A stretch of DNA of 64,000 bases from Geitlerinema sp. S16 (GTDB lineage Bacteria > Cyanobacteriota > Cyanobacteriia > Cyanobacteriales > Geitlerinemataceae). The translations under genes and the position numbers were made by a program. Numbering within the stretch: position 1 is the stretch's first letter; every line of letters starts with the position of its first letter. Shown here one piece after another: positions 1,639-52,224 of this stretch. The notes beneath the pieces were generated by a model that did no database searches, had not been told where the DNA came from, and worked only from the letters and a program-made list of their open reading frames with translations. The stretch covers positions 17,204-81,203 of the forward strand of contig JAABST010000018.1 of the NCBI GenBank assembly GCA_011390275.1, written 5' to 3'.

Positions 1639-1860
1639 TTTGACCTACGCGGTTGATGGTTTAACCGGTTCATGATCGGCTCATGATCGCCTCAATCTCA
1701 GGTTACGATCGGGATTGACCCCAATCTGTGAACGGGCTATGCAGACGACTCTAATTCAGTTCGGCAGCAGCAGACGATCGCCGATGCGCCGATCGCGCTG
1801 GTTGCGTTTCCGGAGATTACGGTTAATCCGGTGACGATTTTGGGTTAGGGCGATCGGCGG

Positions 1861-2102: not shown

Positions 2103-2261
2103 GTGGGTTGAGTTTGAGATCGATGACTTGCGCCGGTAAAGATGCGCACTCGACATCATCGACAGCAACTAAGACCGGGATCAGTGTACTTTTGTTAAGG
2201 CTCGATCCATTCTTGATCGAATCTTTGAGTATTACTCCTGTGATATTTAACGGCGTATTCG

Positions 2262-3398
2262 ATGCGATCAACCTCAAAAAATGATGGTTGTTCGTCATCT
2301 TGTACCGTCCCGTCATTCACGCCAAGCGACACCGAGCCGCAACCACTTTTTTCACTCTTCTTAATAGGCATCATCGTGTTAAACCCCGGTCAACAGCTCT
2401 ATCGAGACCTGCGCGATCGTCTTGAAGAAACAGACTTCTTCAAGCGCAACACCGCCGACTATGTGCGCAAAATCACGACCTACGGCCTGCTGCACATCCT
2501 GTCTTATATCGGCCTTTACGCCTGTGCCGGGACACCCTGGCGCTGGGCTGCTCTCCTCGGCCTGATCCTCTCCGGCATCCAGTTTTACTACGTCAGCCAC
2601 GACGCTGGACACTATGCCATTTCTGACCATAAAAACGTCAATCTTCGCCTGGGTCATATCGGTCACACCTTTATTGCCGGTGCAAGCTTCCGGTTTTGGC
2701 AGTATAAGCACGACCTACACCATCGCTACTGCAACGACGAAACGCGCGATCCCGACATGAATGCGTTTTTCCTCAAGCTCTATGAATCAGACTCTCGTGA
2801 ACGTCCCACCTGGGTGAACTGGGTCATTCGTAATCAAGCTGTGCTGCTCTGGGTCTTGGTTCTCTTTCATAACTTTGAGTTCCAGCGAATGAGCTGGGTG
2901 TACACCCATCAAAATCCAGTGCGTTGTCGTGCTGAACGTGTCTTGATTCCGCTCCATGTGCTGACCTATTTGGTTTTCCCGATCGCGATCCTCGGCTGGC
3001 AAATGGCGCTGACGAACTACATCATTTCGGGCATGATCTCCGGCGTGATCCTCGCGAAACTGTTCGCAATCAACCACATTGGTATGCCCAGCATTCCAAG
3101 CAATCACGGCCTGTCATTCCTTGAGCAACAGGTGATCACGTCGCGCAACGTCGTTGTTCCGGCTCTGTTTGACGACTACTTCGGCGGTCTGCATTACCAA
3201 ATCGAACACCACCTATTTCCCTGGGTGTCGATCGATCGCTATCGTGCGGCCAGCCCGATCGTCAAAGCCTTTTGCCAAGAGCACGGCATTCCCTACGTCG
3301 AAGAAAACTTCGGCCTTGCCCTGCTCAATGTCGAGCGTCATCTTGCCGTCATGTCCAAAACCGAGAACGTACCGGGAACCGTTAGCTCATTGAGTTAA
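2262..3398 (+). CDS. Membrane fatty-acid desaturase, front-end (Delta6/DesD-like) type
   Basis: Three histidine boxes are present: HDAGH, HDLHH and QIEHH. A Q in the third box is typical of front-end desaturases. The true start is probably downstream of the track start, for example the in-frame GTG at 2376. Confidence 0.85.
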   Translation: MRSTSKNDGCSSSCTVPSFTPSDTEPQPLFSLFLIGIIVLNPGQQLYRDLRDRLEETDFFKRNTADYVRKITTYGLLHILSYIGLYACAGTPWRWAALLGLILSGIQFYYVSHDAGHYAISDHKNVNLRLGHIGHTFIAGASFRFWQYKHDLHHRYCNDETRDPDMNAFFLKLYESDSRERPTWVNWVIRNQAVLLWVLVLFHNFEFQRMSWVYTHQNPVRCRAERVLIPLHVLTYLVFPIAILGWQMALTNYIISGMISGVILAKLFAINHIGMPSIPSNHGLSFLEQQVITSRNVVVPALFDDYFGGLHYQIEHHLFPWVSIDRYRAASPIVKAFCQEHGIPYVEENFGLALLNVERHLAVMSKTENVPGTVSSLS

Positions 3399-4438: not shown

Positions 4439-5428
4439 ATGAATTCCTACAACATCTATGGTGTCGGTAACGCACTAGTTGATCTCGAATACAACGTATC
4501 CAGTGAAACGCTCGATCGCCTCGGAATCGAGAAAGGCATGATGACGCTCATCGATGAAGTGAAGCAGGCCGAGGTTGTCGCGGCGCTCGATGGTGCGGAA
4601 CATCGCGCCTGTGGTGGATCGGCGGCCAATACAGTCGTGGCGATCGCGCAAATGGGCGGCAAAGGGTTCTTGTCGTGTCGTATTGGCGACGATGAAACGG
4701 GTAAATTTTACCTCGAAGATCTCACCCGTTTTGGCATCGCGACCAACATCACGCCACCGGAAACGCTGAATTTTGGCACAACGGGTAAATGCCTCGTACT
4801 GGTAACGCCCGACGCCGATCGCACGATGAATACATTTCTCGGCGTGTCGGCGGATATCTCGATCGCCGATCTGGAAGCAGACTCGATCGACGCCTCTGAT
4901 TATGTCTACATCGAAGGCTATCTCGTGAGTTCCGACAGCGCCCGCGCTACGGCGATTCGCGCTCGTGAGCTTGCCCGTGAACACAACACGAAAGTCGCCT
5001 TCACGCTCTCTGACCCCAATATGGTCAAGTTCTTTAAAGCGGGTTTGCTCGAAATTATTGGCGATGGCGTTGACCTGCTGTTCGCCAACGAAACCGAAGC
5101 GATCGAGATGGCGGGAACCGAATCGATCGAGGACGCGATCGACTATCTCCAAACGATCGCCAGCGAATTTGTGATCACCCTAGGTTCACAAGGATCACTG
5201 ATCTACGACGGTACAACGCTGCATAAAATCGCGCCTTATCCGGTCACGGCGATCGATACCGTTGGCGCTGGAGATATGTACGCCGGGGCATTCCTCTACG
5301 GCATCACCCACGGCATGGATTACGCGATCGCCGGTGATTTCGCATCACGAGCCTCCGCGAAAATCGTAACGAAGTATGGCCCACGCCTCAGCGATACCGA
5401 AATTCAAGCCCTTTTGACTCATTCCTAA
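4439..5428 (+). CDS. PfkB-family carbohydrate/nucleoside kinase (adenosine kinase-like)
   Basis: PfkB signatures are present: GGSAANT near the N-terminus and DTVGAGDMYAGAFLYG near the C-terminus. The length is 329 aa. Confidence 0.8.
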   Translation: MNSYNIYGVGNALVDLEYNVSSETLDRLGIEKGMMTLIDEVKQAEVVAALDGAEHRACGGSAANTVVAIAQMGGKGFLSCRIGDDETGKFYLEDLTRFGIATNITPPETLNFGTTGKCLVLVTPDADRTMNTFLGVSADISIADLEADSIDASDYVYIEGYLVSSDSARATAIRARELAREHNTKVAFTLSDPNMVKFFKAGLLEIIGDGVDLLFANETEAIEMAGTESIEDAIDYLQTIASEFVITLGSQGSLIYDGTTLHKIAPYPVTAIDTVGAGDMYAGAFLYGITHGMDYAIAGDFASRASAKIVTKYGPRLSDTEIQALLTHS

Positions 5429-6849: not shown

Positions 6850-9159
6850 ATGTCCGATCGCTCTGCTCTGAAGACGTTAAAACAAAAACTTTGGCCGTGG
6901 CGTGCCGTGATCACCTCGGTTCCGAGTCTAACGATTCTCATCTTGCTGATTCGTAGCCTGGGGGGACTTCAGGGGTTCGAGCTTAGAATGCTCGATTACT
7001 TTTTTCGGTGGCGACCACTAGAGGCGCGTGATCAGCGGATTACGATCGTCGGCATCAGTGAGCCAGACCTGCAAAAGTATGGATATCCGATTAACGACGA
7101 CATCCTCGCCACCCTCCTCGAAACCGTCGCCGCTGAGGAACCACGGGCGATCGGCCTTGATATTTACCGTGATTTGCCCGTACCGTCGCCCAACGATCAA
7201 CGGTTCCAGGATCGACCCAACAATCCCGATCAACTGAATAGCCAGGAGGAGCAGGCCGGTATCGCACCGAGCTACGCGCGGTTATCCGATGTCTTTCGGA
7301 AAAATTCCAATATTATCGGCATTACCAAAGTGACGGGCGGTACGGAGAGTGTCGCCCCTTCGCCGGTCTTGGCAGAACTGGGGCAAACCAGCGCCAATGA
7401 TATACCGCCGGATATTGACGATCGCCAGCGACGCGCCTTTTTATACCTCAAACCCGAAGAAGACGGCGAAACCTACTTTGGGCTGGGCTTTAAGCTGGCC
7501 ATGCTCTATCTTGATCGATCGGGCATTGTTCCCCGCATGAGCGATAACAATAAATGGGTGCAAATCGAAGAGACGATTTTCTATCCGATCGAAAAAAATA
7601 GCGGGAGTTACGTTAATAACGATAGCGGTGGCTATCCGATTTTGATTAACTACCGTGGACCGAGCGGATCGTTCGATCAGGTCACCCTGGACGAGGTGCT
7701 GACGGGTCAGGTGGATCGATCGCTGTTTCGCGATCGCGTCGTCCTGATTGGTTCGACCGCCGAGAGCGTTAAGGATGCGTTCTCGACACCGTTTACCAGT
7801 TTGTCGCAAGGTACGGACAAAGCGCGGGTTCCGGGCGTGGAAATCCACGCCCATATCACCAGCCAAATACTCAGCGCAACCCTCGATGGCCGCAAGAACA
7901 TTCGGACGATTCCGGATTTCGTCGAGGCGCTGATCATTCTGGGCGGGGCCAGTATTGGGGGCATCCTAAGCTGGTATTGGCGTTATAGCACGCCGTTTTG
8001 GCGGATTATGCCGCATATTCTCGGGGTGGTGGCATCTGGTGGTGTGGCCTATGGTTGTTTTCTGGCGGGGTGGTGGATTCCGATCGTGCCGCCGGTGATC
8101 GCCCAGCTCGGTACTGCGATTGCGATCACGGCCTACGTGGCGCGATCGGCGGCAGATATTCGCCAAACCTTTAGCCGCTATCTCACCGATGAGGTGGTGG
8201 AAACGCTGCTCGAAACCCCGGATGGTTTAAATATGGGAGGCGAGCGCCGTCGCATTACTATCTTGACCTCGGATTTGCGAGGGTTTACGGGCATTTCCGA
8301 GCGCTTGCCACCGGAGCAGGTCATCGGAATTTTGAATATTTATCTGGAAGCGATGGCGACGGCGATCGTTAGCCATCAGGGGACGATCGATGAATTCATG
8401 GGCGATGGCATTTTGGTGCTGTTCGGTGCGCCCACCCAGCGGAAGGATGATCCCGAGCGAGCGGTGGCCTGTGCGATCGCCATGCAAAAAGCAATGATCG
8501 GCGTCAATCAACAGATGGCCGATCGGAATTTACCATCGCTGGAAATGGGCATCGGTATCCATACCGGCGAGGTGGTGGTGGGCAATATTGGCTCAACGCA
8601 GCGCACGAAGTACGGCGTGGTGGGTTCGCAGGTGAATCTGACCTATCGCATTGAGGGTTATACCGTCGGCGGTCAGATTTTGATTACCGATGTGACCAAA
8701 AATGAGCTGACGATCCCGATCGAAACCGACGGTAAACAACAGGTGTCACCGAAGGGGGTGATCGAGCCGATCTTGATTCACTCGGTGACGGGGATTGGCG
8801 GTCAATATAATCTGCGTTTGGAGAGCGAACGTGAGGATCTATACGCGATCGATCCACCGATCGATCTGGATTTTGCCGAAATTAAAGGGAAAGATATCAG
8901 CCCCGATCGCTATGCAGGCAAACTGATTTGCCTCTCTGAAAAATATGTTGATCTGGTCACCGAGCGATCGCTCTCCACGCTGACCAATCTTCAATGTCAT
9001 TTAAGAGTGAATGACCATGACGGCGATACGGAATTTTATGCCAAAGTCATGAAAGCAGGGACAGAGCCGAATACCTTTCGCCTACGCCTAACGTCGCTTC
9101 CGATCGATGTCCGCACCTATTTTTCGACGCTCTACGATGCGAATGCGGATGATGCCTAA
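6850..9159 (+). CDS. CHASE2 sensor domain-containing class III adenylate/guanylate cyclase
   Basis: An N-terminal TM segment, a periplasmic CHASE2-like region and a TM cluster are followed by the cyclase homology domain (RRITILTSDLRGFTGISERL...EFMGDGILVLFGAP...GIHTGEVVVGNIGS). The track ORF starts at TTG 6826; the ATG at 6850 (MSDRSALK) is more likely. The C-terminal ~150 aa are unassigned. Confidence 0.85.
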   Translation: MSDRSALKTLKQKLWPWRAVITSVPSLTILILLIRSLGGLQGFELRMLDYFFRWRPLEARDQRITIVGISEPDLQKYGYPINDDILATLLETVAAEEPRAIGLDIYRDLPVPSPNDQRFQDRPNNPDQLNSQEEQAGIAPSYARLSDVFRKNSNIIGITKVTGGTESVAPSPVLAELGQTSANDIPPDIDDRQRRAFLYLKPEEDGETYFGLGFKLAMLYLDRSGIVPRMSDNNKWVQIEETIFYPIEKNSGSYVNNDSGGYPILINYRGPSGSFDQVTLDEVLTGQVDRSLFRDRVVLIGSTAESVKDAFSTPFTSLSQGTDKARVPGVEIHAHITSQILSATLDGRKNIRTIPDFVEALIILGGASIGGILSWYWRYSTPFWRIMPHILGVVASGGVAYGCFLAGWWIPIVPPVIAQLGTAIAITAYVARSAADIRQTFSRYLTDEVVETLLETPDGLNMGGERRRITILTSDLRGFTGISERLPPEQVIGILNIYLEAMATAIVSHQGTIDEFMGDGILVLFGAPTQRKDDPERAVACAIAMQKAMIGVNQQMADRNLPSLEMGIGIHTGEVVVGNIGSTQRTKYGVVGSQVNLTYRIEGYTVGGQILITDVTKNELTIPIETDGKQQVSPKGVIEPILIHSVTGIGGQYNLRLESEREDLYAIDPPIDLDFAEIKGKDISPDRYAGKLICLSEKYVDLVTERSLSTLTNLQCHLRVNDHDGDTEFYAKVMKAGTEPNTFRLRLTSLPIDVRTYFSTLYDANADDA

Positions 9160-9161
9160 GC

Positions 9162-9295
9162 GTGCAACGACGAAATAAACGTTCCTGATGAGGGCGAGAA
9201 GTCCCACTTTTTCAAAAAGCCAGACTTCTGGGATGGGCGATTATTTGCGGACAATACGGCATGGCAAGGCAAGATATCGTTAGAACAGTTGAAAC
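9162..9295 (+). repeat. Dispersed repeat family 2, copy A (contains a 43-nt nested hairpin insertion)
   Basis: GTGCAACGACGAAATAAACGTTCCTG...GGGATGGGCGATTATT..CGGACAATACGG..GCAAGG..AAGAT..TTAGAA..GAAAC aligns with 32094..32286. Confidence 0.6.
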
Positions 9296-9325
9296 AAACC
9301 GAATTCCCGTTATCTGCCAAACCCC

Positions 9326-11227
9326 ATGCGACCGCCCCGCAACCTTACCCTGATCTTCGGCGTCTGCGTCATCCTCGCGCTGTCGATTTGGCTGATCACA
9401 TCCTTGGGCTGGCTCTATAGCCAAATCGCCTGGTCAGCGCCGCCGTTTTTGGCGGGCTTGCTCGTGATTTTGCTGATCATAACGATCGCCGTCGCACTCT
9501 ACACCTTTCTCTATTATTTCGGCCTTTTCAAAGCGCCGGGATGGGGCGGTCTAGGCCGATTTGGCCGATTTGGTCAATCAGGCCGATCCGATCGATCGAC
9601 TCGATCGGGGCAAGCACGCCGCAGCCTTCGCGCCCCCGCCGACAAAACCGACGCCGCCACCGCCAACCTCAACGCCGTCCGTCAACAGGTCAGCCAAATT
9701 CAGGACGAGGTGACTCGCCGCGCCCTGCTGAGTCGATCGCGCGAAATCGAGACCAACATGGCGCGGCAGAATCTCAAAATTGTCGTGTTTGGCACGGGAT
9801 CGGCGGGAAAAACCTCGCTGATTAACGCGCTGCTCGGTCGCGTGGTGGGTCGCGTGGCCGCGCCGATGGGGTCAACCCAGGAAGGGCGGGTGTTTACGCT
9901 GGAATTGGAGGGCGTCGGGCAGGCGGTGGAGATTGTCGATACGCCGGGAATTTTGGAGGCGGGCGAAGCGGGCGGGATGCGATCGCAGGTGGCGCGGCAG
10001 TGGGCAGCCGAGGCGGATTTGCTGATTTTTGTGCTGGATAACGATTTAACCCAGGCGGAATTTGCGCCCCTGATCGCCTTGGCGGAGATCGGTAAACGCT
10101 CGATCGTCGCCTTCAATAAAAGCGATTTATATCTAGAAGCTGATCGCGATGACATCATCGCCAAGCTGCGATCGCGCCTCCACCGCTGGATTCCGCCCAG
10201 CGATATCGTCGCGATCGCCAGTAACCCGCCCTCGGTACGCCTCGACAGCGGCGAGGTCATCAAACCCAACCCGGATATCGTCGCGCTCGTGCAGCAAATC
10301 ATCGCGGTGTTGCGGGCGGAAGGCGAAGACCTGATCGCCGATAATATTTTGCTGCAATCCCAGCGCCTCGGCGATCGCGCCCGCAAACTCATCGACGCCC
10401 AACGTCACCGCCAAGCCGCGAAAATCGTCGATCGCTACCAGTGGATCGGCGCGGGAGCCGTGGCGATGACACCGTTGCCGGTGGTGGATTTGCTGGCGGC
10501 GGCGGCGGTGAACGCGCAAATGGTGGTCGAAATCGCCAAGGTGTACGGCTGCGAGCTGAATATGGAACGGGGTCGAGAGCTGGCGCTATCGTTGGGAAAA
10601 ACTCTTGCTAGTTTGGGCATCGTCAAGGGAGCCGTGCAGTTGGTGGCCGGGGCGCTATCGCTGAATATCGCGACGCTGGTCGTGGGTCGAGCGATTCAAG
10701 GCATTGTTGCGGCCTACTTAACCCGGATTGCGGGCAAAAGTTTTATCGAATATTTCCGCCAGGATCAGGACTGGGGGGACGGTGGCATGACCGAGGTGGT
10801 GCAGCGACAGTTTCAGCTCACGCGCAAAGAGGAGTTTGTTAAGGCGTTTGTAAAAGATGCGTTTGCCAAGGTGGTCGAACCGTTGAAGTTGTCGATCGAG
10901 CCGGAAAATCTCGATGAAGGGCCGCTGTTTGTGCCAGAGGAGGAACTGATCGCCGATCGCGGGTTCGATCGCTGGGCAGATGATGCGCCGATCGCCCCGT
11001 TTTCATCGAGCGATCTCAATCGTCCAGAACCGCTCTATACCGAACGTGACCCGATCGCCGATCGCCCTGCCGCCTCCATTCCCTTCAATCCCGACCCCAG
11101 GCCGCGATCGCAGCCGTTCAACACGCCTATCCCCCGCGAAGAGGACTACGAGCTAGCGACGATTGATCGCCCGGAAGAACAGGAACCCGACGACTGGAAT
11201 CGATCAGTTGCGCGTGATGATTGGTAA
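9326..11227 (+). CDS. Membrane-associated GTPase with a DUF697 domain (YcjF-like region)
   Basis: The P-loop is VVFGTGSAGKTSLINALLG, with DTPG and NKSD motifs. A hydrophobic DUF697-like region (AMTPLPVVDLLAAAAVNAQMVVEIAKVYG) follows. There are N-terminal TM helices and a Pro/Asp/Glu-rich tail. Confidence 0.75.
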   Translation: MRPPRNLTLIFGVCVILALSIWLITSLGWLYSQIAWSAPPFLAGLLVILLIITIAVALYTFLYYFGLFKAPGWGGLGRFGRFGQSGRSDRSTRSGQARRSLRAPADKTDAATANLNAVRQQVSQIQDEVTRRALLSRSREIETNMARQNLKIVVFGTGSAGKTSLINALLGRVVGRVAAPMGSTQEGRVFTLELEGVGQAVEIVDTPGILEAGEAGGMRSQVARQWAAEADLLIFVLDNDLTQAEFAPLIALAEIGKRSIVAFNKSDLYLEADRDDIIAKLRSRLHRWIPPSDIVAIASNPPSVRLDSGEVIKPNPDIVALVQQIIAVLRAEGEDLIADNILLQSQRLGDRARKLIDAQRHRQAAKIVDRYQWIGAGAVAMTPLPVVDLLAAAAVNAQMVVEIAKVYGCELNMERGRELALSLGKTLASLGIVKGAVQLVAGALSLNIATLVVGRAIQGIVAAYLTRIAGKSFIEYFRQDQDWGDGGMTEVVQRQFQLTRKEEFVKAFVKDAFAKVVEPLKLSIEPENLDEGPLFVPEEELIADRGFDRWADDAPIAPFSSSDLNRPEPLYTERDPIADRPAASIPFNPDPRPRSQPFNTPIPREEDYELATIDRPEEQEPDDWNRSVARDDW

Positions 11228-12935: not shown

Positions 12936-14639
12936 ATGGTTGCTCCACTGCTTGAACTCGATCGCCTCTCGATTACCTATCCCAAAACGACGGCACGATC
13001 GGCGGATAGCGTCTCATTTTGTCTGCACGCGGGCGAAATTCTCGGGCTGGTAGGCGAATCCGGCTGCGGTAAATCGACCCTTGGACGTGCTGCGATTCGG
13101 CTTCTGCCCGCTGGAAGCCGTACCGAGGGGAAAATTCGGTTTTGTGGTGAGTCAGTATTCGAGTTTGACACCGAGCGGCTACGACAGTTTCGAGGCGAAG
13201 CGGTGGCGCTGGTGTTCCAAGATCCGATGACGCGCCTCGATCCGCTGATGACGATCGGCGATCATTGCCTCGAAACGCTCCACGCTCATCGCCCCGATCT
13301 CGATCGCGCTGCCGCCAAAGCCAAAGCCCTCGACACCCTAAAAACCGTCAAAATCCCCGCCGATCGCTGGGCGCAATATCCCCATGAGTTCAGCGGCGGA
13401 ATGCGTCAACGGGTGGCGATCGCCCTGGCGCTATTGCTCGATCCAAAGTTAATCGTCGCCGATGAGCCGACCACGAGCCTGGATGTCACCGTGTCGGCGC
13501 AGATTCTCGATGAGCTGTCGCGCCTGTGTCGCGAGCGAGATCTCGGCTTGCTGCTGATTTCGCATGATTTAGCGATGGTGGCACAATACAGCGATCGCGT
13601 CGCGGTGATGCATGACGGTCAGCTCGTGGAATGCGATACCGCCAAGACCGTGCTACAAACCCCGAAACATCCCTACACGCGATCGCTGCTGGAGGCGGCG
13701 CTACACCTACACGCGATCGCCGATCGTGAAACCTCAGACCGTGCGGATACAACCCACGATGAGACGGATCGGGACGCGATGCCGAATGCAGTCCCGAGTG
13801 ATGTCGTCATTCGCGCGATCGACCTAACTCAGCACTATACCCTCGCTGAAAATCCTCTGGCCGCACTGGTCAACCGCCTGCGCCGTGGTTCGTCAAGTGG
13901 TGGGAACGATCGCAAAATTCGCGCGGTCGATGGCCTCAATTTCGAGATTTTTCAGGGTGAAATCCTTGGTCTGGTGGGTGAGTCCGGCTGTGGTAAATCG
14001 ACCCTATCGCGGACGTTGCTGCAACTGATTCCGCCGACGAGCGGGCGGGTGGAATTTCTCGGGCGCGATATTACCCATTTATCGCGCCAGGATTTACGCC
14101 AGCAGCGCCGCCAAATGCAAATGGTGTTCCAAGATCCGCGAGCCTGTCTCAATCCGATGATGACGATCGGCGAGGCGATCGCCGATCCGCTCTTGGTTCA
14201 CAAGCTAGCCGAAACCGTGGGCGCGGCGAAAGATCAGGTCTTGCCTATGCTCGATCGCGTTGGTCTTGAGCGTGATTTTTACGATCGCTACCCCGATCAG
14301 CTTTCCGGTGGCCAGCAACAGCGCGTCGCGATCGCCCGTGCGTTGATCACCCGCCCGAAGTTTGTGATCTGCGATGAGCCGGTGAGTATGCTTGACGCGA
14401 ACGTCCAATCGCGGGTGTTAGATTTGATGCGCGATCTGAAGGATGAATTTGAACTCACCTATTTGTTTATCACCCATGATCTTTGGGTCGCGCGATATTT
14501 CTGCGATCGCATTGCCGTGATGAATGGCGGCAAGATTGTCGAAATTGGCAAAACTCATCATGTTTTCAGTCAGCCGCAGCATCCCTATACCCAAGCCCTG
14601 CTCGGAGCAGCCCCCTTACTCGCTCAGGTGAATCGCTAA
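12936..14639 (+). CDS. ABC transporter ATP-binding protein with two fused NBDs (oligopeptide/dipeptide/nickel DppD/F type)
   Basis: There are two Walker A motifs (GESGCGKST twice), two LSGG signatures (FSGGMRQR, LSGGQQQR) and two Walker B motifs (IVADEPT, ICDEPV). Confidence 0.9.
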   Translation: MVAPLLELDRLSITYPKTTARSADSVSFCLHAGEILGLVGESGCGKSTLGRAAIRLLPAGSRTEGKIRFCGESVFEFDTERLRQFRGEAVALVFQDPMTRLDPLMTIGDHCLETLHAHRPDLDRAAAKAKALDTLKTVKIPADRWAQYPHEFSGGMRQRVAIALALLLDPKLIVADEPTTSLDVTVSAQILDELSRLCRERDLGLLLISHDLAMVAQYSDRVAVMHDGQLVECDTAKTVLQTPKHPYTRSLLEAALHLHAIADRETSDRADTTHDETDRDAMPNAVPSDVVIRAIDLTQHYTLAENPLAALVNRLRRGSSSGGNDRKIRAVDGLNFEIFQGEILGLVGESGCGKSTLSRTLLQLIPPTSGRVEFLGRDITHLSRQDLRQQRRQMQMVFQDPRACLNPMMTIGEAIADPLLVHKLAETVGAAKDQVLPMLDRVGLERDFYDRYPDQLSGGQQQRVAIARALITRPKFVICDEPVSMLDANVQSRVLDLMRDLKDEFELTYLFITHDLWVARYFCDRIAVMNGGKIVEIGKTHHVFSQPQHPYTQALLGAAPLLAQVNR

Positions 14640-31276: not shown

Positions 31277-32062
31277 ATGAAAGTCCGTCATCTCTTACGA
31301 GGCTACGAGGCGGGAAACCGAAACTTCGCTGGTGTTGATCTGCACAGCGTCCACCTCGAACGCACAACCCTAATTGGGGTTGATTTTACTAGCGCGAATT
31401 TGATGGGGTCTGTCTTTTCCCGATCGTTTCTCAGCAAAACGGTCTTCGATCGAGCCTCGCTCAACTGGGTCGATCTCACCTTCGCCAAGCTCAACAATTC
31501 GCGCTTTGTGGCCTCGGATCTCACCAAAGCTAGCCTGGACGGTATCTTCGCGGTGGATACCGACCTATCCGCCGCCAAGTTAAGCGGCACACAACTGCGC
31601 GGCGCAAACCTATGCGGCGCAAGCCTACGCCAAGCCAACCTACGCGGCGCGAACCTAACGGGGGTGAACCTACGCGGAGCCGACCTCTCCGGCGCGGATC
31701 TTCGCTGGGCGAATTTGAGTGGCGCACGCATGAGCGGAGCCAAGCTTGATGGTGCGCTTCTCGAAGAGACGATTTTCACCGGAGCTTGGTTAAATGGCGT
31801 GAATTGGTCAGGAGCGGATTTGTCTCACCTGAAGTTTGAAGAAGCTAAGCTCAGCGGAGCCAATCTTGAGCGCACGAATTTAGCCCAGACGAATCTTCGC
31901 TATGCGGTGTTACACGGGGCTCTTCTGCGTGAGGCGAATTTAACAGGGGTGGATTTTACGGGAGCCTCGCTTGAGGCCGCAGATTTACGAGAGACCAATC
32001 TCAGTCAGGCAACGTTCGATCGCGCCAACCTAACACGAGCTCAACTGACGGGAACCTATTAA
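31277..32062 (+). CDS. Pentapeptide-repeat protein
   Basis: Almost the whole 261 aa consists of A(N/D)LXX repeats (GANLCGASLRQANLRGANLTGVNLRGADLSGADLRWANLSGARMSGAKL). Confidence 0.85.
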   Translation: MKVRHLLRGYEAGNRNFAGVDLHSVHLERTTLIGVDFTSANLMGSVFSRSFLSKTVFDRASLNWVDLTFAKLNNSRFVASDLTKASLDGIFAVDTDLSAAKLSGTQLRGANLCGASLRQANLRGANLTGVNLRGADLSGADLRWANLSGARMSGAKLDGALLEETIFTGAWLNGVNWSGADLSHLKFEEAKLSGANLERTNLAQTNLRYAVLHGALLREANLTGVDFTGASLEAADLRETNLSQATFDRANLTRAQLTGTY

Positions 32063-32517: not shown

Positions 32518-34692
32518 CTACTTGATAAACAGCATTTCCTGATACGTCGGCAACGGCCAGAAGCTATCTGCAATCTCACCTTCCAACGAATCCGCGTAAA
32601 CCCGCGTTTGATCCATTAGAGGACGCAGAGTTTGAGAGCAATACTGCATCTTGTCCTCCGTGCTGGCAAAATCATGCTTCTGCAACGCTGCACTCAACTC
32701 ATCCACGGTCGCCATCATCGACTTACTCAGATCCGCGATGCCTTGCGCACTCGCTTTATCAAAGTCAATACCGAGTCCACTCAAACTCGAAATCGTCGAA
32801 GACAGTTTCGAGAGGTACTCCACAACCGTCGGGTAGATGATGGTTTTCACCATATTCACCACGAGCTTCGCTTCAACCTCGATCGACAGGATGTACTGCT
32901 CTGCATAGACTTCAAAGCGGCTTTCCAGTTCCACCGAAGTTAACACGCCCGTCTTCGTGAACAGATCCTCAACGTAATCTGCTTTTAGGCTTGGCAATGC
33001 ATCTGCGGTCGTACGCAGGTTCGCCAACCCACGCTCCTCTACCGCCATGGTGTGCCACTCCTCAGAGTAACCATTACCGCCAAACACAACGGCGCTGTGC
33101 TCTTCCATGACTTCCTTCAGGACAGTCAGAATGGCGACACTCAACTCCATGCCATCAGAGAGACAAACTTCGAGTCGATTACCAATCCAATCGAGCGAAT
33201 CCGCCAACATTGTGTTCAACACAATCAGTGGGCCGGAAACTGACTGACTCGAACCCACAGCACGGAATTCAAATCGGTTGCCGGTGAAAGCGAACGGCGA
33301 GGTGCGGTTACGATCGCCCGCATCCTTGGTGAGCGGAGGCAGTACATCCACCCCAAGATCCATCACCCCTTTCTGCTTCGAGCCGGTAACTGAGCCTGTC
33401 TTGATTTGCTCAAAGACTTCTTCGAGCTGCGTGCCGAGATAGACGGACATGATCGCCGGAGGCGCTTCGTTCGCTCCCAAACGATGGTCGTTGCTCGCCG
33501 TGGCGATCGCCGCCCGCATCAACGGCCCATACTTATGCACACCTCGGATGACCGCGCCACAGAACACCAAGAACTGCGCATTATCCTGAGGCGAATCGCC
33601 CGGATCGAGCAGATTACCTTGGGTGGAGTTACCCACCGACCAGTTCACGTGCTTACCCGATCCGTTAATTCCGGCAAAGGGCTTTTCGTGCAACAGGCAA
33701 GAGAAACCATGCTTCTTCGCCGTGTTTTTCAGCACAGTCATGATCAATTGTTGGTGATCACTAGCGACGTTTGCCGCTTCAAAAAAGGGCGCAATCTCAA
33801 ACTGACCCGGAGCCACTTCGTTGTGTCGTGTCTTCGCCGGAATACCGAGTTTGTACAGGGTTTCTTCCACGTCTTGCATGAACACCTGAACACGCTCAGG
33901 AATCGCACCGAAGTAGTGATCGTCGAACTCTTGACCTTTGGCAGGAGCTTTGCCAAATAGCGTTCTTCCCGCAATCAGCAGGTCAGGACGCTGACTCGCA
34001 AAATGCGAATCCACCAAAAAATATTCTTGTTCAGCACCACAGCTCGAATTGACGTGCGCAACGTCGGTATGACCGAGCAATTTCAAAACTTTGCTTGCCG
34101 CCTTGTCCATCGCCGCGATCGATCGCAGCAAGGGCACTTTCTTGTCGAGCGCTTCGCCAGTCCAGGAGACAAATACGGTGGGAATACACAACGTGGCACC
34201 GTTGTCGGTTTCCATGATGTAGGCCGGGCTGGTCACATCCCAACCGGTATAGCCTCGGGCTTCAAACGTATCTCGGATGCCGCCATTGGGGAATGATGAA
34301 CCATCCGGCTCACCCTGTACCAGCACCTTGCCGGAAAATTCTGAAATGACGCTACCGTCGCCTTGAACCGAGATGAAACCATCGTGCTTTTCCGCCGACA
34401 GGTTCGTCATCGGGTAGAACACGTGAGCGTAGTACAGTGCGCCTTTCGAGGTAGCCCAGTCACGCATAGCCGTTGCCACAGCATCAGCGACTAATGGATC
34501 GAGTTTCTCGCCCGTCACGATCGTCTTCTTGACCGATTTAAAAACGTTTTTGGGCAGGCTCGCCTGCATTTTACTGAGGTTGAAGACATTCTCAGCCCAG
34601 ATGCTTTCTAGGCGAGCTGGTGGCTTCGGCGGTAGTGCTGTGCGGTTGACAATTTGCTGAACCGCTTGAATACGTGCTTCATTTCCACTCAT
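32518..34692 (-). CDS. glnN: Type III glutamine synthetase
   Basis: The 724-aa length and sequence are typical of GlnN (…[21 protein letters not shown]…[10 protein letters not shown]…[10 protein letters not shown]…). Confidence 0.95.
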
Positions 34693-35125
34693 GATTCTTT
34701 CCGCAACTTTGCTGCTTCCAAAACGTTAACTGTACAATCGTATTTAAGACGAACCATCGCAATAGACCTCAAACAGACAAAAACAACAGTAACTCAACTG
34801 ACGTTGTAGACACTGGGTTACTGTATGACGAGGGCTATGACGCTACTGAGCCAGAGGGTCTAGCGTTAGCGGGTCTATTAATGTGTTCGTAAAAATTTTT
34901 TCGCAAGAAAAGGGCGCTACTAAGTCCGGTTAAGACAAAATAGAGTACTAGGTTATTATCTTCTGCGAGGGGAAATAATAATTTCAAGACTCAGAATTCT
35001 GCGTCTACAGGTTTAGCAACGCCTAGCAAGAAGTACCTATAAGACCTAATTCAGGACTTACGAAGAAATTATTCAAGGCTTAAACTTGATTGACTGTAGT
35101 TATCTCATGAACGGTAGCCCCTAAT

Positions 35126-35141
35126 TGTACTCAATGCTACA
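35126..35141. promoter_or_regulatory. Perfect NtcA-type palindrome TGTA-N8-TACA
   Basis: tGTActcaatgcTACa lies about 435 nt upstream of the glnN start. No convincing TAN3T -10 box was found at the canonical 22-nt spacing on either strand. Confidence 0.3.
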
Positions 35142-35380
35142 AACTCTTCCAGAAATAATGCCGTGGAAGACAGAGGGTGGCTAACTGGAACGCATGTACA
35201 GAAAATGTCTAGTCAAGACAAGCTGATATCGCTCAAATAAGCCTCTAGATATAGATCTTAGATTATTGTCGCAATAAAACAAAGAAGCGTGCCTCAGCTT
35301 GATCAGCTCCTTAACTTGACGTTTCCTGGTCTGTTAATCACATTTTCGCTTGAACGGTCTCGGAGGGAGGGTCTTGAATA

Positions 35381-35513
35381 CTAGGGGCTGTCATCAATTA
35401 AATGTCTAGCGCTTACCCAGTAAGGGTTACAGCCCCTAGCTTTTTTTTGTTGGGTCGGGAGTTTAACAGCTTACCCGATAAGGGTTCTACGATTAATTGA
35501 TGACACGCCCTAG
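35381..35513. mobile_element. MITE family 1, copy 3
   Basis: CTAGGGGCTGTCATCAATTAAA ... TTAATTGATGACACGCCCTAG. It sits inside the long glnN-upstream intergenic region. Confidence 0.75.
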
Positions 35514-35661
35514 CACATGAATACAGCGCCATTCTGTGGGTCGATCGCTTGTCCGTAAGTTTGAGGACTGACAAACTTTTCTGCGTTAATCAGATCCCGA
35601 ACTCACATTAATCCAGTCTGCATTGCGGACTGGTTACATCGATTAGCTTGCGATTACACGC

Positions 35662-35701
35662 AAAAACAAGCCGCATAGTTGTAATTCTGCGGCTTGTTTT
35701 T
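35662..35701 (-). terminator. Strong bidirectional rho-independent terminator downstream of the RGSGR ORF
   Basis: The stem ACAAGCCGCA/TGCGGCTTGT is flanked by AAAAA and TTTTT. Confidence 0.75.
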
Positions 35702-35878
35702 ACCTTACTCAAATGAATTGAACCAGGCCAGAATCATAAACCTTTCTCTTGATTATTCCAGATTGGAATAAGCTCGAAATGATGATGATCCGTGCTGTCT
35801 GCGATCGTTTGTCAGGGTGAAATGTGTTTGTAGAGCGTACTGTTACTTGAAGTTTATGGGTCGTTGAAAACGAAAAAA

Positions 35879-36052
35879 CTAGCGACCACTACCGCGATAA
35901 GGAGCAATGGAGTCGTTCGCATTTTCGGCTTCGGTTGCACGAATAAAACTGGTATCGAACTGTGCAGATGCGTGAGCAGGCAGGATGTGGAGATTGATGG
36001 CAACGCCGATCATAAGAAAACCAGAAATCCAAAGAGCGTTAGAGATGCGCAT
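35879..36052 (-). CDS. Candidate PatS/PatX-like small secreted peptide ending in RGSGR (57 aa)
   Basis: Hand translation gives MRISNALWISGFLMIGVAINLHILPAHASAQFDTSFIRATEAENANDSIAPYRGSGR*. The ORF is below the track cutoff. It has a hydrophobic signal-like N-terminus, a C-terminal RGSGR and its own downstream terminator. Confidence 0.5.
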   Translation of the reverse strand: MRISNALWISGFLMIGVAINLHILPAHASAQFDTSFIRATEAENANDSIAPYRGSGR

Positions 36053-36355
36053 GATTTTAATCGTTTAATGCGTTCATTTCTAAGTACCTCGGATGGTTAA
36101 GTGCATCCGGGAAAAATCAAAATGACAGTGTGATTTTTTTGCACTTACTTCCAGCAGAATCGACCCTCGCAAGGAAGAGAGAGGAGGGGATAGCAGCTCC
36201 ACAAAGCCTGACTTCGTATAGTTCTGGAGCGATCGCGCCTGTGGGATCGAGATCAATCGAGTACGTCAGAACACACGCGAGTCAACCCGTCGCGCCGATG
36301 GCAATACACCCATCACGATCGCCTGACCGGCTCTCAAAACCAACTTAGAACAAAT

Positions 36356-36784
36356 TCAAAATAAACTTAAAATCTCCCGACAACAGCGTTTGAACTTCGC
36401 TTGTATTTCTGGATTCGGCTCACTCTGACCACGAAACTCCCACCATTCCACCGTGGAAAGCCGCCATTGCTGACCACGATGGTCATACCCCGCCAGCTCA
36501 AGCCCGATCGCGCGACGTTGCTGCTCTAACGGATCGTCATGAAAGCGGATCTGCACCAACAGGCTACGGCACTGGCTCGATCGGCTCAATCCTGGAAAAT
36601 GAAACCCAATATCGATCGAGTCGGGATCGACGAGATCTCGGGTGTCGGGGTCATTTGTCCAGGGCTTGAGATCGGAACGAAGATCCGGAAACTCCGTCTT
36701 AAATAAATTAACGATCGCGGCAATCTTAGTTGCCATGGCGATATCTCGCGCTTGTTCGGCAGCGTTCATCGGCGCTTTCCTCAC
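36356..36784 (-). CDS. Hypothetical protein
   Basis: 142-aa track ORF with plausible composition and no recognised motif. An alternative start is M6. Confidence 0.45.
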   Translation of the reverse strand: MRKAPMNAAEQARDIAMATKIAAIVNLFKTEFPDLRSDLKPWTNDPDTRDLVDPDSIDIGFHFPGLSRSSQCRSLLVQIRFHDDPLEQQRRAIGLELAGYDHRGQQWRLSTVEWWEFRGQSEPNPEIQAKFKRCCREILSLF

Positions 36785-36920
36785 GCTACGTAAACCTTAG
36801 TTTAAAAGGTTAACGATTTAATGTACATTCGCAAGCACTCTTTGAACAGTTTTCTAAAGATGCGAACGATTTTGAGGTGCGATCGCCCTCATCCTACGTT
36901 TCACGTAAAACATCTTTAAG

Positions 36921-37844
36921 ATGGTTAAAGTTTCCTTTTGCTCAATCATTATGCTGCGTTCGATTGTTCGTTGGGCTATGCGTTGCCTGCTCATGGCGGT
37001 CTTCGGCATGGGTTGTCTATTCGGTCATGCCGCCATTGCCTCTGCTGATCTCGCTTCGCCAGCGATGGTCACGACCGTCTCGTCTCCGTTGATCGGCCTC
37101 ACCAATCTCGATCTTGATCGGCTCGATGGCGTCTCGCGTGCGGCCACGGCTGCTGGAGGACTCGGCGATTTTGAGCTAGCCGAACGTGGCTGGACACAGA
37201 TTATCGAGGAAATGCCCGAAAATGCCGCTGCATGGAGCAATCGCGGCAATATTCGCATCGGTCTCAATCAGCTAGACGCCGCGATCGATGACTATACCCG
37301 ATCGATCGAACTCGCCCCAAATATCACCGACCCGTATATCAATCGCGGAGCCGCCTACGAAGCGCAGCAAAACTGGGACGCGGCGATCGCCGACTACAAC
37401 GAAGCGATCGCGATCGATGATCATGACCCCGCCGCCTATAACAATCGTGGCAACGCCCAAGCACGACAAGGAGACTGGGATAGCGCCCTTTCGGACTACC
37501 AACGCGCGATCGCGATCGATCCAAAGTTTTCCCTCGCACGCCTGAATGTCGCCTTTGCCAAATACGAACTAGGCCGCGATGATCAAGCGATCCGTGAGCT
37601 ACGCAGTCTCGTGCGAAAATACCCCAGCTTTGTCGATGCCCGCGCTGCCCTCACAGCAGCCTACTGGCAAAGCGGACAGCGCGGTCAGGCCGAAAGTAAC
37701 TGGGTCGCCGTCAATGGTCTCGATCAGCGCTACCAGGATATTGACTGGGTTGAACATATACGACGCTGGCCACCGCGTTTTGTCGCAGGCTTGCAGGCAT
37801 TTCTAGCGCTGGAATCGCCGAATTCGGCGATACAGTCCAACTAA
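36921..37844 (+). CDS. TPR-repeat protein with an N-terminal membrane/signal segment
   Basis: Repeated TPR consensus is present (AAWSNRGNIRIGLNQLDAAIDDYTRSIELAPN, YINRGAAYEAQQNWDAAIADYNEAIAIDD, YNNRGNAQARQGDWDSALSDYQRAIAIDP). Confidence 0.8.
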   Translation: MVKVSFCSIIMLRSIVRWAMRCLLMAVFGMGCLFGHAAIASADLASPAMVTTVSSPLIGLTNLDLDRLDGVSRAATAAGGLGDFELAERGWTQIIEEMPENAAAWSNRGNIRIGLNQLDAAIDDYTRSIELAPNITDPYINRGAAYEAQQNWDAAIADYNEAIAIDDHDPAAYNNRGNAQARQGDWDSALSDYQRAIAIDPKFSLARLNVAFAKYELGRDDQAIRELRSLVRKYPSFVDARAALTAAYWQSGQRGQAESNWVAVNGLDQRYQDIDWVEHIRRWPPRFVAGLQAFLALESPNSAIQSN

Positions 37845-37884
37845 GACAGAACCAGATTTCGTATAGAAGAGAGATTATAGCTAT

Positions 37885-37916
37885 CAAAAAAGCTGCATTG
37901 ATGATGCAGCTTTTTT
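37885..37916. terminator. Bidirectional terminator between the convergent TPR gene and acsF
   Basis: AAAAAAGCTGCAT-TGAT-GATGCAGCTTTTTT. Confidence 0.8.
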
Positions 37917-38006
37917 GGTTGATGAACCTGAGGAGGTCGCCGAATAAATTGGCCATTCTTGGCTATTCAACGACTCGCTCACGCATCATTAATTAGCAAA
38001 CTCGAC

Positions 38007-39083: not shown

Positions 39084-39304
39084 GGGAATTTTTGAGGTAT
39101 TGCTGCGATCGCGAGAACTACGGTAGCCGCGTCACCAAACGCGCATCGGTACTGTAGATCTAGGCTTTAAATTGTATGTAATTAGGTCTCAGTGTATCAA
39201 CGGGCTGAAAGGCGATCGGTTGACTGTCGTAAAAAGTTACAACATGTTGCGTTTGGGGATCATGCGTTGTATCGGCCACGCGATCGACTGGGCGCGACGT
39301 AGGT

Positions 39305-39694
39305 TTAGGTCGGATCGCTCGATCGCCGGATAATCCGTTTGGCTTTAACCCCGACCGCTTGATTGAAGCGGATTAGCTCCAGGCTGCGATCGCCGTAAAC
39401 ATCGTTAATGTGTTCCTGACAGCACTCGATCGCGAACTCATTTAAATCCGCGTCTTCGACCCCATAGCGAATTTTGAACTCTCCCGCATCGACCCGACAA
39501 AACGCCGGTCGATCGTCATAGACCCGGCACTCGCGCGTCTCGCGATCATAATTCACACACCAGCCATCATCCGCCACCATCCCGAGATACAGCGCCAGCT
39601 CCTCGGGTGTCAGATAGTCTCCCAGATCGGGACGTTCGCTGGGTTCGAGGTAGCAGCACGCCCCGCAGTTCTTGACACATTGCCACGTTGCCAT
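39305..39694 (-). CDS. YkgJ-family cysteine-cluster protein (UPF0153)
   Basis: MATWQCVKNCGACCYLEP contains the CxxCxxCC motif, and further conserved Cys residues follow. The track ORF starts 10 codons earlier, at 39724. Confidence 0.7.
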   Translation of the reverse strand: MATWQCVKNCGACCYLEPSERPDLGDYLTPEELALYLGMVADDGWCVNYDRETRECRVYDDRPAFCRVDAGEFKIRYGVEDADLNEFAIECCQEHINDVYGDRSLELIRFNQAVGVKAKRIIRRSSDPT

Positions 39695-49382: not shown

Positions 49383-50495
49383 GTGGTTAGTTTCTTTAAA
49401 AACCTGTTTTCGCGATCGAAGAACGGCATTGGCCTAGAGATCTGCCCTGATCGTGTCAACCTGATTAAGCTCAAAAGGCAGGGTAGCTCCGGTTATAAAC
49501 TCGACCTATTCGCAACGGAAGAAGTCCCGGAAGGCATTTTCGTCGAGGGCGAAATTATCGATCGTCCCGCCATGGCGTCATTGCTTGATGACTTTGTCAC
49601 CGCCAATAAGATTAACGCCAAGAACATCGCAACAGCGATCCCCGGACGCGAATCGATCGTCCGACTCGTTCCGGTTCCCGCCGAACTCGAAGACGAAAAC
49701 GAACTCCGTGACTACATCAACCAAGAGGCGGGGCTATACCTACCGTTTCCGCGCGAAGAGGCCGACGTTGACTATCAGCGACTCGGTTCGTTTGTTGATG
49801 AAGATGATGTGGAAAAAGTCCAGGTCTTGCTCGTCGCAACGCGCAAAGACGTAATCGATAGCTACATCGCCACGTTTCGAGAAGCGGGTTTAGCGCTTGA
49901 TATCATCGAGGTCAGCAGCTTTTCTATTTTGCGGATTATCCGCGACCAACTCCAGCAGTTCACGCCCGCCGAAGCGTCGGTGCTGGTCGATCTCGAATTT
50001 GATAGCACTGAACTCGTGGTGATCGTTGACGGTGTACCGCAATTTTCGCGCACCATCCCGCTGGGTTGTTTTCAGATCCAAAGCGCCCTTTCCGAGGCGA
50101 TGAATTTGCCACCATCGCGTAATATCGAACTACTTCAGGGTATGACCTTGCCGATCGACGGCGTGGATACGATGACGATGGGTACGATGGGGGGGAATAA
50201 TCCCGGAACAACGGCCATGATGAAAGTACTCGGTGAACTGGCGGACGAAGTCCGACGCTCGATCGATTTTTATCTTAATCAAAGCGACGGACTCGAAGTG
50301 GCGCAGATTTTTCTGGTGGGTCCGGGTAGCTCGATCGGACAGCTCGATGAGTTCTTTATGCAGCGATTAAGTATCCCAACGACCCAAATTGATCCCGTCG
50401 ATAGTTTGGGGCTTGATATTAGTGAAGAACTCCTACCACCCGTCCAGCGACCTGGGCTTGGCGTGGTTCTCGGCCTTAGCCTCCGGGAGGTGTAG
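49383..50495 (+). CDS. pilM: Type IV pilus assembly protein PilM
   Basis: An actin-like ATPase fold pattern is present. The N-terminus ...IGLEICPDRVNLIKLK is typical of PilM, and pilN/O/Q follow. Confidence 0.9.
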   Translation: MVSFFKNLFSRSKNGIGLEICPDRVNLIKLKRQGSSGYKLDLFATEEVPEGIFVEGEIIDRPAMASLLDDFVTANKINAKNIATAIPGRESIVRLVPVPAELEDENELRDYINQEAGLYLPFPREEADVDYQRLGSFVDEDDVEKVQVLLVATRKDVIDSYIATFREAGLALDIIEVSSFSILRIIRDQLQQFTPAEASVLVDLEFDSTELVVIVDGVPQFSRTIPLGCFQIQSALSEAMNLPPSRNIELLQGMTLPIDGVDTMTMGTMGGNNPGTTAMMKVLGELADEVRRSIDFYLNQSDGLEVAQIFLVGPGSSIGQLDEFFMQRLSIPTTQIDPVDSLGLDISEELLPPVQRPGLGVVLGLSLREV

Positions 50496-50497
50496 CG

Positions 50498-51292
50498 ATG
50501 TACAGCATTGAAATTAACTTCCTCGACGATCGCCCAGAATACAACCCCGAGGTTTTAGCCGCATCTTCGGGGTCGGGCGCTCCGCCGATGAGCATTGAGG
50601 GTCAAACGGCGCTGATTATCGGCGGCGCGGTGGCTGCGACGGCTCTCGCCCTGGTGGGTGGCGCGTGGTTTTACCTCACCCGCATTTCGATTCCCCAACT
50701 CGAAGCCAGACAGAGCGATCTTGATAGCGAACTCGCGGTCTATCTCAAAAAAGAGGAGGAACTACAGGCGCTGAATGATGAAACAGCGCAAATCACGGGG
50801 CAAACAGAATCCTTAGCCGGGGTCTTTAATTTTGTGACGCCCTGGTCGGCGGTGCTGCAAGATCTACGCGATCGCACCCCGCCCGGTGTACGCATCAACG
50901 GCATCGTACAAAGTGAACCCAAAAAAGGGGGATCGGCAGCTCCTCCGGAGGGCGAAGCCACCGAAGGGGCGACCTCGATCATTGTGATCAGCGGGATTGC
51001 GAGTTCTTTTAGCGAAGTGAGCGATCTGTTGGTGGTCTTGCAGCAGTCGAGCTTTTTTGATGGATCGGCGACACGTCTACTCAGTTCGGAGATGGCGGAC
51101 AATCCCGGTAAAGTCATCCAAGCCTCAGAGACGCAGTTCAAAGGAAATCTAGACCAAGTTGTTACCTTTGAGATTGAAACGCAGCTTGAACGCGTGGCGG
51201 CATCGAGTATCTTAGGCGAATTGGAAGCTAAAGGCGCAACGGGTCTCGTTAGCCGTATTCGCCGATTGCAAACCCGAGGAGTTATCGAATAA
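50498..51292 (+). CDS. pilN: Type IV pilus assembly protein PilN
   Basis: N-terminal INFL is followed by a single TM helix and a coiled coil. The gene starts 2 nt after pilM. Confidence 0.8.
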   Translation: MYSIEINFLDDRPEYNPEVLAASSGSGAPPMSIEGQTALIIGGAVAATALALVGGAWFYLTRISIPQLEARQSDLDSELAVYLKKEEELQALNDETAQITGQTESLAGVFNFVTPWSAVLQDLRDRTPPGVRINGIVQSEPKKGGSAAPPEGEATEGATSIIVISGIASSFSEVSDLLVVLQQSSFFDGSATRLLSSEMADNPGKVIQASETQFKGNLDQVVTFEIETQLERVAASSILGELEAKGATGLVSRIRRLQTRGVIE

Positions 51293-52224
51293 TGAGTCAA
51301 GCAGACGATTTTTTGGAAGAAGAGGAAGGCATTGCCCTCTTTGGGATTTCAATGTCACCGACCATCCTGGGGGCGATCTTGGCGGTCGTCGGGATTGCCG
51401 GAGCGGTTTGGCTGGGTTTAAAACTGGTGAAGCCTGCGATCGATGAGCGATCGTTGCTTGCCGCTGATATTTCCACGAAGGAAGATCAGCTCAGTCAACA
51501 GGGAGACATTCAGGCGCGTATCGAAGCGGCTCAAGACGAGCGCAGCGCTGCTCAGACTGTCCAGCGCGAAGTCCTCAGCATGTTCGCCAGCAAAGATAGT
51601 CTGAGTACGCTGCTACTCGATTTAAACCAGCAAATCGAGCAGCGTAATACCGAACAGGCGACCCCGATCGCGGCTCGCTTGACAGCCCGTCAGTGTCCGG
51701 CCTATGTCGTGAACAAATTTCAAGAAATCAAGGATAAGACCAGCGGTTTTTTTGCGGTGGCCGAAATGCGTGGGTTTGATCCGGTCGTTTTGGATACCAA
51801 CTCAGCCCAGGCGAATGCGGCGGCGATCTCCGAGGATGGTTTAGAGCTGGTGCAAGACGGGTCGCTTGGTTCCGCTGCCAATGGCCAGGTTAAGCGTCAG
51901 ACGTACACGGTCTCGTTTGCGGGCAGTTTTCCGCAAACCCAGGCCATTTTTCGTCAGCTTGAGCAGCTTCAACCTTTGCTCACGGTGAAGGATGTCAACA
52001 TGGACGTGGTTGAGCGTCCCATTTTGTTTGGCAGTACGGGAGCGTTGGACACCTGTCAGCCGGACTTACCGCTTGAGACCACGTTTACCTTGCAGGCGTT
52101 GTTACCGCTTTCCGCACAAGAGTTAGCTCAACAGGCCGATGAGGCGAAGGCGGCGGAGGAAGCGGCGGCGGAGGGTGCGGCTCCTGAGGGTGCGGCTCCT
52201 GAGGGTGCGGCTCCTGCTGAATAG
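51292..52224 (+). CDS. pilO: Type IV pilus assembly protein PilO-like
   Basis: A single TM helix (ILGAILAVVGIAGAVWLGL) and a coiled coil are present. The start overlaps the pilN stop. The C-terminus carries EGAAP x3. Confidence 0.7.
   Translation: MSQADDFLEEEEGIALFGISMSPTILGAILAVVGIAGAVWLGLKLVKPAIDERSLLAADISTKEDQLSQQGDIQARIEAAQDERSAAQTVQREVLSMFASKDSLSTLLLDLNQQIEQRNTEQATPIAARLTARQCPAYVVNKFQEIKDKTSGFFAVAEMRGFDPVVLDTNSAQANAAAISEDGLELVQDGSLGSAANGQVKRQTYTVSFAGSFPQTQAIFRQLEQLQPLLTVKDVNMDVVERPILFGSTGALDTCQPDLPLETTFTLQALLPLSAQELAQQADEAKAAEEAAAEGAAPEGAAPEGAAPAE

Follow-up and report, generated by a model that had tools for sequence, protein, structure and literature searches.

A small minus-strand open reading frame (ORF) in the window (the whole stretch of 64,000 nucleotides of Geitlerinema sp. 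S16 DNA that was analysed) ends in RGSGR, which raises the question of what it encodes. The initial annotation left two readings, an unlinked patX or a distinct RGSGR-peptide gene; the family models, the orthologues and the promoter select the unlinked patX. The ORF is likely, in our view, to be the patX orthologue in a filamentous cyanobacterium of the Geitlerinema/Coleofasciculaceae type that forms no heterocysts, and to act as proposed below. PatX is an already established family, for which the mechanism and promoter class have been described and close relatives named. What is new here is that one unannotated gene is recognised as a PatX member, not new biology.

The 57-codon gene and its family

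The coding sequence occupies 35879..36052 on the minus strand and consists of 57 codons plus TAG, with an ATG at 36052..36050 and the stop at 35881..35879. Its translation is MRISNALWISGFLMIGVAINLHILPAHASAQFDTSFIRATEAENANDSIAPYRGSGR*, a protein of 57 amino acids in which RGSGR forms the final five residues before the stop; both coordinates and translation are exactly as the initial annotation gave them. The gene lies in a gap of 1663 nt (34693..36355), bounded by the start of glnN and by the stop codon of the neighbouring ORF upstream. Its GC content is 0.438, that of the window 0.537; one HIP1 site occurs in the gap, the window-wide density being 1.27 per kb, so that its earlier description as a 1.66-kb AT-rich, HIP1-poor intergenic region stands.

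An ORF ending in this motif is not readily obtained by chance. In 200 first-order Markov simulations read in six frames, the expectation for a terminal RG[ST]GR was 0.045 per 64-kb window, and at least one occurred in 4% of the simulations. The window contains exactly one RG[ST]GR followed by a stop, that of patX. Two further RG[ST]GR strings are present, both out of frame relative to the real genes at those places.

The protein database contains an identical protein (P0001) and nine relatives with 60–86% identity. Selection was analysed by the Nei–Gojobori method on the DNA of nine distinct orthologous loci. The initial annotation had suggested looking for conservation of the ORF and for purifying selection on the RGSGR codons, and both are found: PYRGSGR followed by an immediate stop is kept in nine of nine loci, and the codons of this block differ only synonymously (pS 0.63 (0.627), pN 0.000). 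For the whole gene, dN/dS is 0.18–0.35; the linker is the fastest-evolving section (pN 0.33, pS 0.63) and the signal region is intermediate. On the opposite strand, stop codons break an overlapping 78-codon ORF in two of the loci (L003 and L007). The 57-codon ORF is a real gene under protein-level purifying selection.

PatX as published combines a Sec signal sequence with a C-terminal RG(S/T)GR (PMC12756182; PMC7761841). The three-part architecture noted at the outset, a hydrophobic N terminus, a linker and an RGSGR end, is conserved among the orthologues. Residues 1–28 (35969..36052, minus strand) form a predicted Sec signal peptide with a positively charged MR as the n-region, ALWISGFLMIGVAINLHIL as the hydrophobic core and P-A-H-A as the c-region. 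The core spans residues 6–24, with a Kyte–Doolittle hydropathy maximum of 2.0–2.5 across residues 6–18. In an alignment of eight PatX sequences, P25, A26 and A28 are invariant, giving an A-x-A at 26–28, and cleavage by signal peptidase is predicted after A28. A variable hydrophilic linker follows (residues 29–50; 35903..35968, minus strand), and the protein ends in the PYRGSGR that is invariant in the nine loci (35882..35902, minus strand). YRGSGR or RGSGR would be the active peptide.

At the nucleotide level, the RGSGR codons (GCGGTAGTGGTCGC, 35882..35895, minus strand) contain a weak 5-bp inverted repeat followed by TAGTTTTTT, which looks terminator-like in a simple scan. This repeat is probably incidental, because the T-run is not conserved in L002.

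The HMM comparison with PatX that the initial annotation had proposed gives a full-length but sub-threshold match. The sole NCBIfam match of the window protein is to the equivalog NF047413, 'heterocyst-inhibiting protein PatX', with residues 1–57 aligned to positions 1–66 of the 69 in the model (E = 1.9e-6). The score is 28.5 bits vs a curated cut-off of 30, that is, 1.5 bits short. When the window PatX and sequences from the set P0002–P0010 were scored, values in the clade ranged from 22.3 to 35.2 bits and four of the nine scored, the window protein included, passed. The relative P0010, 62% identical, already bears the NCBI name 'heterocyst-inhibiting protein PatX [Geitlerinemataceae cyanobacterium]'. 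A precomputed match to the Pfam family PF28278 (PatX) is recorded for the identical protein P0001, where it is flagged 'weak', and for seven of the nine relatives.

The sub-threshold score, together with the weak statistics of short proteins in general, is what could be cited for a convergent, non-homologous small protein that happens to end in RGSGR, or for a chance ORF. Against this stand the full-length match to the PatX model and the orthologues that score above the cut-off, the purifying selection, the low chance expectation, and the conservation of both promoter and terminator (below). We regard this explanation as extremely improbable; selection and the family scores of the clade effectively refute it.

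The shortfall of 1.5 bits also probably accounts for the missing annotation of the window patX. Since the clade straddles the 30-bit cut-off, patX is named in some of its genomes and uncalled in others, and surveys of patX presence and absence will under-count this clade. A published table lists Geitlerinema sp. PCC 7407 with patX = 0 and hetR = 1; this entry, and those in similar tables, may reflect such under-counting.

Predicted promoter, leader and terminator

The promoter was examined by aligning the 160 nt upstream of patX from the nine loci. A predicted −35 element, CCCGGA (36106..36111, minus strand), lies 54–59 nt 5′ of the patX ATG and is of the DIF1/sigma-HetZ type, with C in place of T−35. 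The predicted −10 element, GGTA (36085..36088, minus strand), follows after 17 bp and corresponds to positions −13 to −10 of TGnA. From the positions of these two elements, transcription would start near 36075, leaving a 5′ untranslated region (UTR) of ~23 nt (36053..36075, minus strand).

The alignment shows which of these positions are constrained. The block CCGGAT is invariant in nine of nine loci, and the canonical TCCGGA occupies the same column in L006 and L007, the two most distant lineages. The spacer between the promoter elements is constant in length at 17 bp and variable in sequence; it is followed by an invariant block, GTACnTAGAAA, and by a leader that is almost invariant down to the ATG. 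Within the −10 element, none of the nine loci departs from G−12, T−11 and A−10, with G, A or C at position −13. The near-DIF1 CCCGGA that the initial annotation placed at 36111..36106 is therefore present and positionally invariant; the TACTTA that it paired with this element at a distance of 19 nt is better replaced by GGTA (36088..36085), with a 17-nt spacer. The DIF1 motif is reportedly found within 69 nt upstream of patX (abstract of Elhai and Khudyakov), and an NtcA site upstream of patX is said there to be expected only in heterocyst formers.

HetZ has been shown to be a sigma factor that recognizes T−35C−34C−33G−32G−31A−30 and T−13G−12nA−10 separated by 16–17 bp (PMC13342950, 2026). T−35 can be exchanged, as can T−13 for A and, in part, for G or C (PMC13342950); in the case of patS, DIF1 sits 35 bp 5′ of the transcription start (PMC7377430). 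The sequence CCCGGA-17 bp-GGTA matches this published architecture, and both deviations of the predicted promoter (T−35 to C, T−13 to G) fall on positions reported to be fully or partly replaceable. Likewise, the natural variants across the loci (C at −35; G, A or C at −13) agree with the substitution tolerance measured in vitro. The composite pattern alone is unremarkable, with two matches in the window vs 0.66 expected, and the assignment of this predicted promoter draws its weight from position and conservation rather than from the rarity of the pattern. A complete, predicted sigma-HetZ-type promoter is kept 5′ of patX in non-heterocystous filaments, which supports the idea that the HetR/HetZ/PatX core circuit predates heterocysts.

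Other candidate regulatory features near the promoter gave less. The HetR-recognition box GGGN5CCC is absent across 29546-44820, and the patS and patX promoters are reportedly without a HetR box (PMC7377430). No NtcA box was found 5′ of patX. The only nearby GTAN8TAC is GTACTCAATGCTAC at 35127..35140, ~435 nt 5′ of the glnN start codon; that it serves as the NtcA site of an NtcA-regulated glnN is plausible, with the count of this pattern in the window at chance (3 vs 3.4 expected). An inverted repeat, CCCCT(C)…(G)AGGG (36160..36192, minus strand), lies ~100 nt 5′ of the predicted start and is partly conserved in L001, L002 and L004. We rejected it both as a structure, for which RNAalifold is unsupportive, and as a HetR box, for which its spacing is unfit. 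A mini-upstream ORF in the leader (ATGAACGCATTAAACGATTAA) was also rejected: L006 and L007 have ACG in place of its ATG, and transcription is predicted to start on or after this ATG.

At the other end of the gene, an intrinsic terminator hairpin at 35662..35701 (minus strand) has both A-run and T-run flanks and is potentially bidirectional. With the A/U runs counted, its stem measures 16 bp; folding of the 231-nt 3′ region gives z = −3.2. In L002 and L001 the stem (AAGCCGCA/TGCGGCTT) is kept and the loop varies. The hairpin that had been proposed as a strong terminator at this position is thus real on the evidence of both folding and conservation; a simple scan missed it because its loop exceeds 8 nt.

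The 3′ UTR occupies 35702..35878 (minus strand) and has a conserved block just 5′ of the terminator. This block, …AATCAAG…GGCCTGGTTCAATTCA…, is ~70 nt long, lies within 35702..35790 (minus strand) and can be aligned in L004, L002 and L001. A ten-codon ORF in the 3′ UTR (MILAWFNSFE) was rejected as it is not conserved in L002 or L001, and no Rfam family was matched in 34500..37200. Taken together, the predicted promoter and the conserved terminator point to a monocistronic transcript of ~415 nt.

Neighbouring genes and linkage to hetR

With Anabaena HetR (identical to PDB 4HRI/4YRV) as the tblastn query, no HetR-like coding potential was found in the 64-kb window (best E ~1), bearing out the earlier remark that no HetR-like ORF is present there; a match of HetR residues 246–283 within the hisS-like gene is noise at E ~1. 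Nor are het or pat regulators found among the large ORFs of the window, and the same tblastn search detected no HetR in the 46 loci examined (best E ~1). In none of the nine clade loci does a hetR lie within ~10 kb of patX. In a protein search with HetR, the best 120 of the 1630 matches were all from Nostocales. Published surveys report hetR in all analysed GTDB Geitlerinemaceae genomes (PMC8633866), and it has also been reported in Coleofasciculales reference genomes.

The initial annotation had assumed that patX usually adjoins hetR. This is not general. In a control locus from the heterocystous Nostoc sp. UHCC 0702 (L046, CP071065.1 283434..304333), the 10 kb to each side of hetR contain no RG[ST]GR ORF; tight linkage is therefore not a defining property of the family. 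Adjacency of patX and hetR varies by lineage and is unreliable as a criterion for identifying patX.

The separation from hetR might nevertheless mean that genomic uncoupling reflects functional uncoupling, with a PatX-family gene whose peptide, in this lineage without heterocysts, is directed at something other than HetR. The absence of hetR from the ~10 kb around every one of the nine clade patX loci would fit such a scheme, as would the deletion transcriptomes of patX and hetR in the non-heterocystous Leptolyngbya sp. BL0902, which suggested that PatX has effects 'basically independent of HetR' (PMC11298460); the HetR-binding step may therefore not hold outside heterocyst formers. On the other side, the strongest constraint in the protein falls on the invariant RGSGR, the HetR-binding motif, the predicted promoter retains the sigma-HetZ architecture that would couple patX to the HetR–HetZ circuit, and non-adjacency is also seen in heterocystous Nostoc, where the coupling of PatX to HetR is undoubted. 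We consider a target other than HetR unlikely, and favour the patX orthologue with HetR as its target.

The gene directly upstream of patX is conserved and encodes a protein of 137 amino acids (36356..36769, minus strand; counted from a GTG, the mechanical ORF reaches 36784). Seven distinct lineages carry it upstream of patX, next to patX in six and separated by an epimerase gene in L006, and the outer flanking genes differ among these lineages. In the other loci it is found at 7327..7737 (L001), 1255..1665 (L002), 9255..9665 (L004), 9094..9504 (L007), 4474..4884 (L011) and 2153..2563 (L006). Across the clade the 137-residue protein is 85–95% identical, PatX there being only 60–89% identical, and it matches no Pfam or NCBIfam family. 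Could the two genes form a functional module, in which the partner acts as receptor, immunity or processing factor and replaces the pairing of patX with hetR? The persistence of the pair in seven lineages despite differing outer flanks, and the 85–95% identity of a partner of no known family, speak for such a module. Yet the family of the partner occurs widely, with 117 clusters at 50% identity, 33 metagenome loci, and loci of as little as 38% identity that have no patX close by; none of the 32 loci in which the partner is at most 66% identical has a PatX-like ORF within 4 kb. Moreover, patX has its own conserved predicted promoter, 245 nt past the partner stop codon, the epimerase gene intervenes in L006, and structure provides no help: the single-sequence AF2 model of the 137-residue protein is weak (pLDDT 62.5), and Foldseek returned no match in the PDB at E ≤ 0.001, HetR included. 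We judge a two-gene module highly improbable. A role for the 137-residue protein as a HetR-like or PatX-specific partner was rejected, as it has no similarity to HetR and the adjacency is confined to the close clade; for the latter reason, the adjacency is probably clade-level synteny.

On the other side of patX lies glnN (32518..34692), which encodes a type III glutamine synthetase, and beyond it a gene for a pentapeptide-repeat protein of 261 amino acids (31277..32062, plus strand; 8418..9203 in L001 and 458..1243 in L003, both minus strand). In L001 and L003, the pentapeptide-repeat gene comes next after patX on its downstream side, in convergent orientation; in the window, L004 and L005, glnN separates them. 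The pentapeptide-repeat protein was considered as a HetL immunity factor and rejected: it scores 147.6 bits with the HetL equivalog, far under the cut-off of 260, and 150.5 vs a cut-off of 125 with the Alr5209-family model, and its PDB matches are generic pentapeptide-repeat proteins.

Further away, a fused two-domain ATPase of 567 amino acids (12936..14639, plus strand) is of the OppD/OppF type found in oligopeptide or dipeptide ABC transporters. We note it only because an importer would be required to take up exported RGSGR peptides; any connection with patX would be speculative. The type IV pilus assembly gene pilM and, after it, three probable pilN, pilO and pilQ ORFs (49383..52224, plus strand) form a run that suggests type IV pilus-based motility. 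The remainder of the window is housekeeping in nature (mraY, glpX, hemA, PDH E1-alpha, panE, acsF, mnmA and the hisS-like gene).

Proposed mechanism and comparison with known systems

We propose the following pathway for the window patX, which is modelled on conserved sequence features and on the experimentally characterized protein of Nostoc. A monocistronic mRNA of ~415 nt would run from the DIF1/sigma-HetZ-type promoter to the hairpin at 35662..35701, and its translation would yield a pre-pro-peptide of 57 amino acids, the protein-level purifying selection on which is documented above. The pre-pro-peptide would be exported by the Sec pathway and cut by signal peptidase after the A-x-A at residues 26–28; Sec export has been demonstrated by experiment for Nostoc PatX (PMC12756182). 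The ubiquitous periplasmic peptidase PatP would then trim the product to a C-terminal (Y)RGSGR, as has been shown in Nostoc and with an E. coli reporter; in Nostoc, exported PatX is processed by PatP to a HetR-binding hexapeptide (PMC12756182). Finally, as has been shown in Nostoc for the HetR-binding hexapeptides HRGTGR and ERGSGR (PMC12756182), the peptide may reach neighbouring cells, bind the hood domain of HetR and block its binding to DNA; HRGTGR, derived from Nostoc PatX, has also been shown to suppress differentiation. The putative hetR would be encoded elsewhere in the genome, unlinked from patX.

A more far-reaching possibility is that patX in this clade stands permanently apart from hetR, keeps its sigma-HetZ-type promoter and serves HetR-independent RGSGR signalling in a non-differentiating filament. 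Such signalling would follow if the genome lacked hetR or if YRGSGR had another receptor, which, if true, could conceivably involve the ultra-conserved 137-residue protein. We regard this scenario as quite improbable, and the HetR-directed pathway remains our preferred reading. The points made above on annotation, promoter and linkage leave the current picture of the PatX system unchanged.

The closest match among known systems is PatX of Anabaena/Nostoc PCC 7120 (Asl2332; Elhai & Khudyakov 2018). Like the window protein, it is small, begins with a hydrophobic Sec-type signal, continues in a variable linker and carries RG(S/T)GR at the C-terminal end. The family, found in filamentous cyanobacteria, also shares the DIF1-type −35 motif within ~60 nt of the start codon. 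PatX of Anabaena has 77 amino acids (PMC13342950) and the protein described here has 57; in Asl2332 the motif is RGTGR preceded by H, whereas here it is RGSGR preceded by Y and forms the extreme C terminus. Also unlike Asl2332, the window patX has CCCGGA for TCCGGA, has no NtcA box upstream and is not near hetR.

PatS (17 amino acids) and HetN share with the window PatX the same HetR-binding pentapeptide, and are restricted to subsets of heterocyst formers (PMC12756182). Like the window patX, patS has a DIF1/sigma-HetZ promoter (PMC7377430; PMC13342950). Unlike the window PatX, however, PatS lacks a signal peptide, its processing presumably taking place in the cytoplasm, and HetN is a ketoacyl-reductase-like protein in which RGSGR is internal (PMC12756182).

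A parallel in lifestyle is Leptolyngbya sp. BL0902 (GFS31_32390/32400; PMC11298460), a non-heterocystous filament with a patX that has a predicted DIF1 promoter and that is described as meeting the definition of Elhai and Khudyakov (PMC11298460). The two differ in linkage: in BL0902, hetR follows directly on patX, apparently in a shared transcript (PMC11298460), whereas the window patX is predicted to be transcribed alone up to a terminator of its own, and any hetR would lie no closer than 28 kb on one side and 36 kb on the other.
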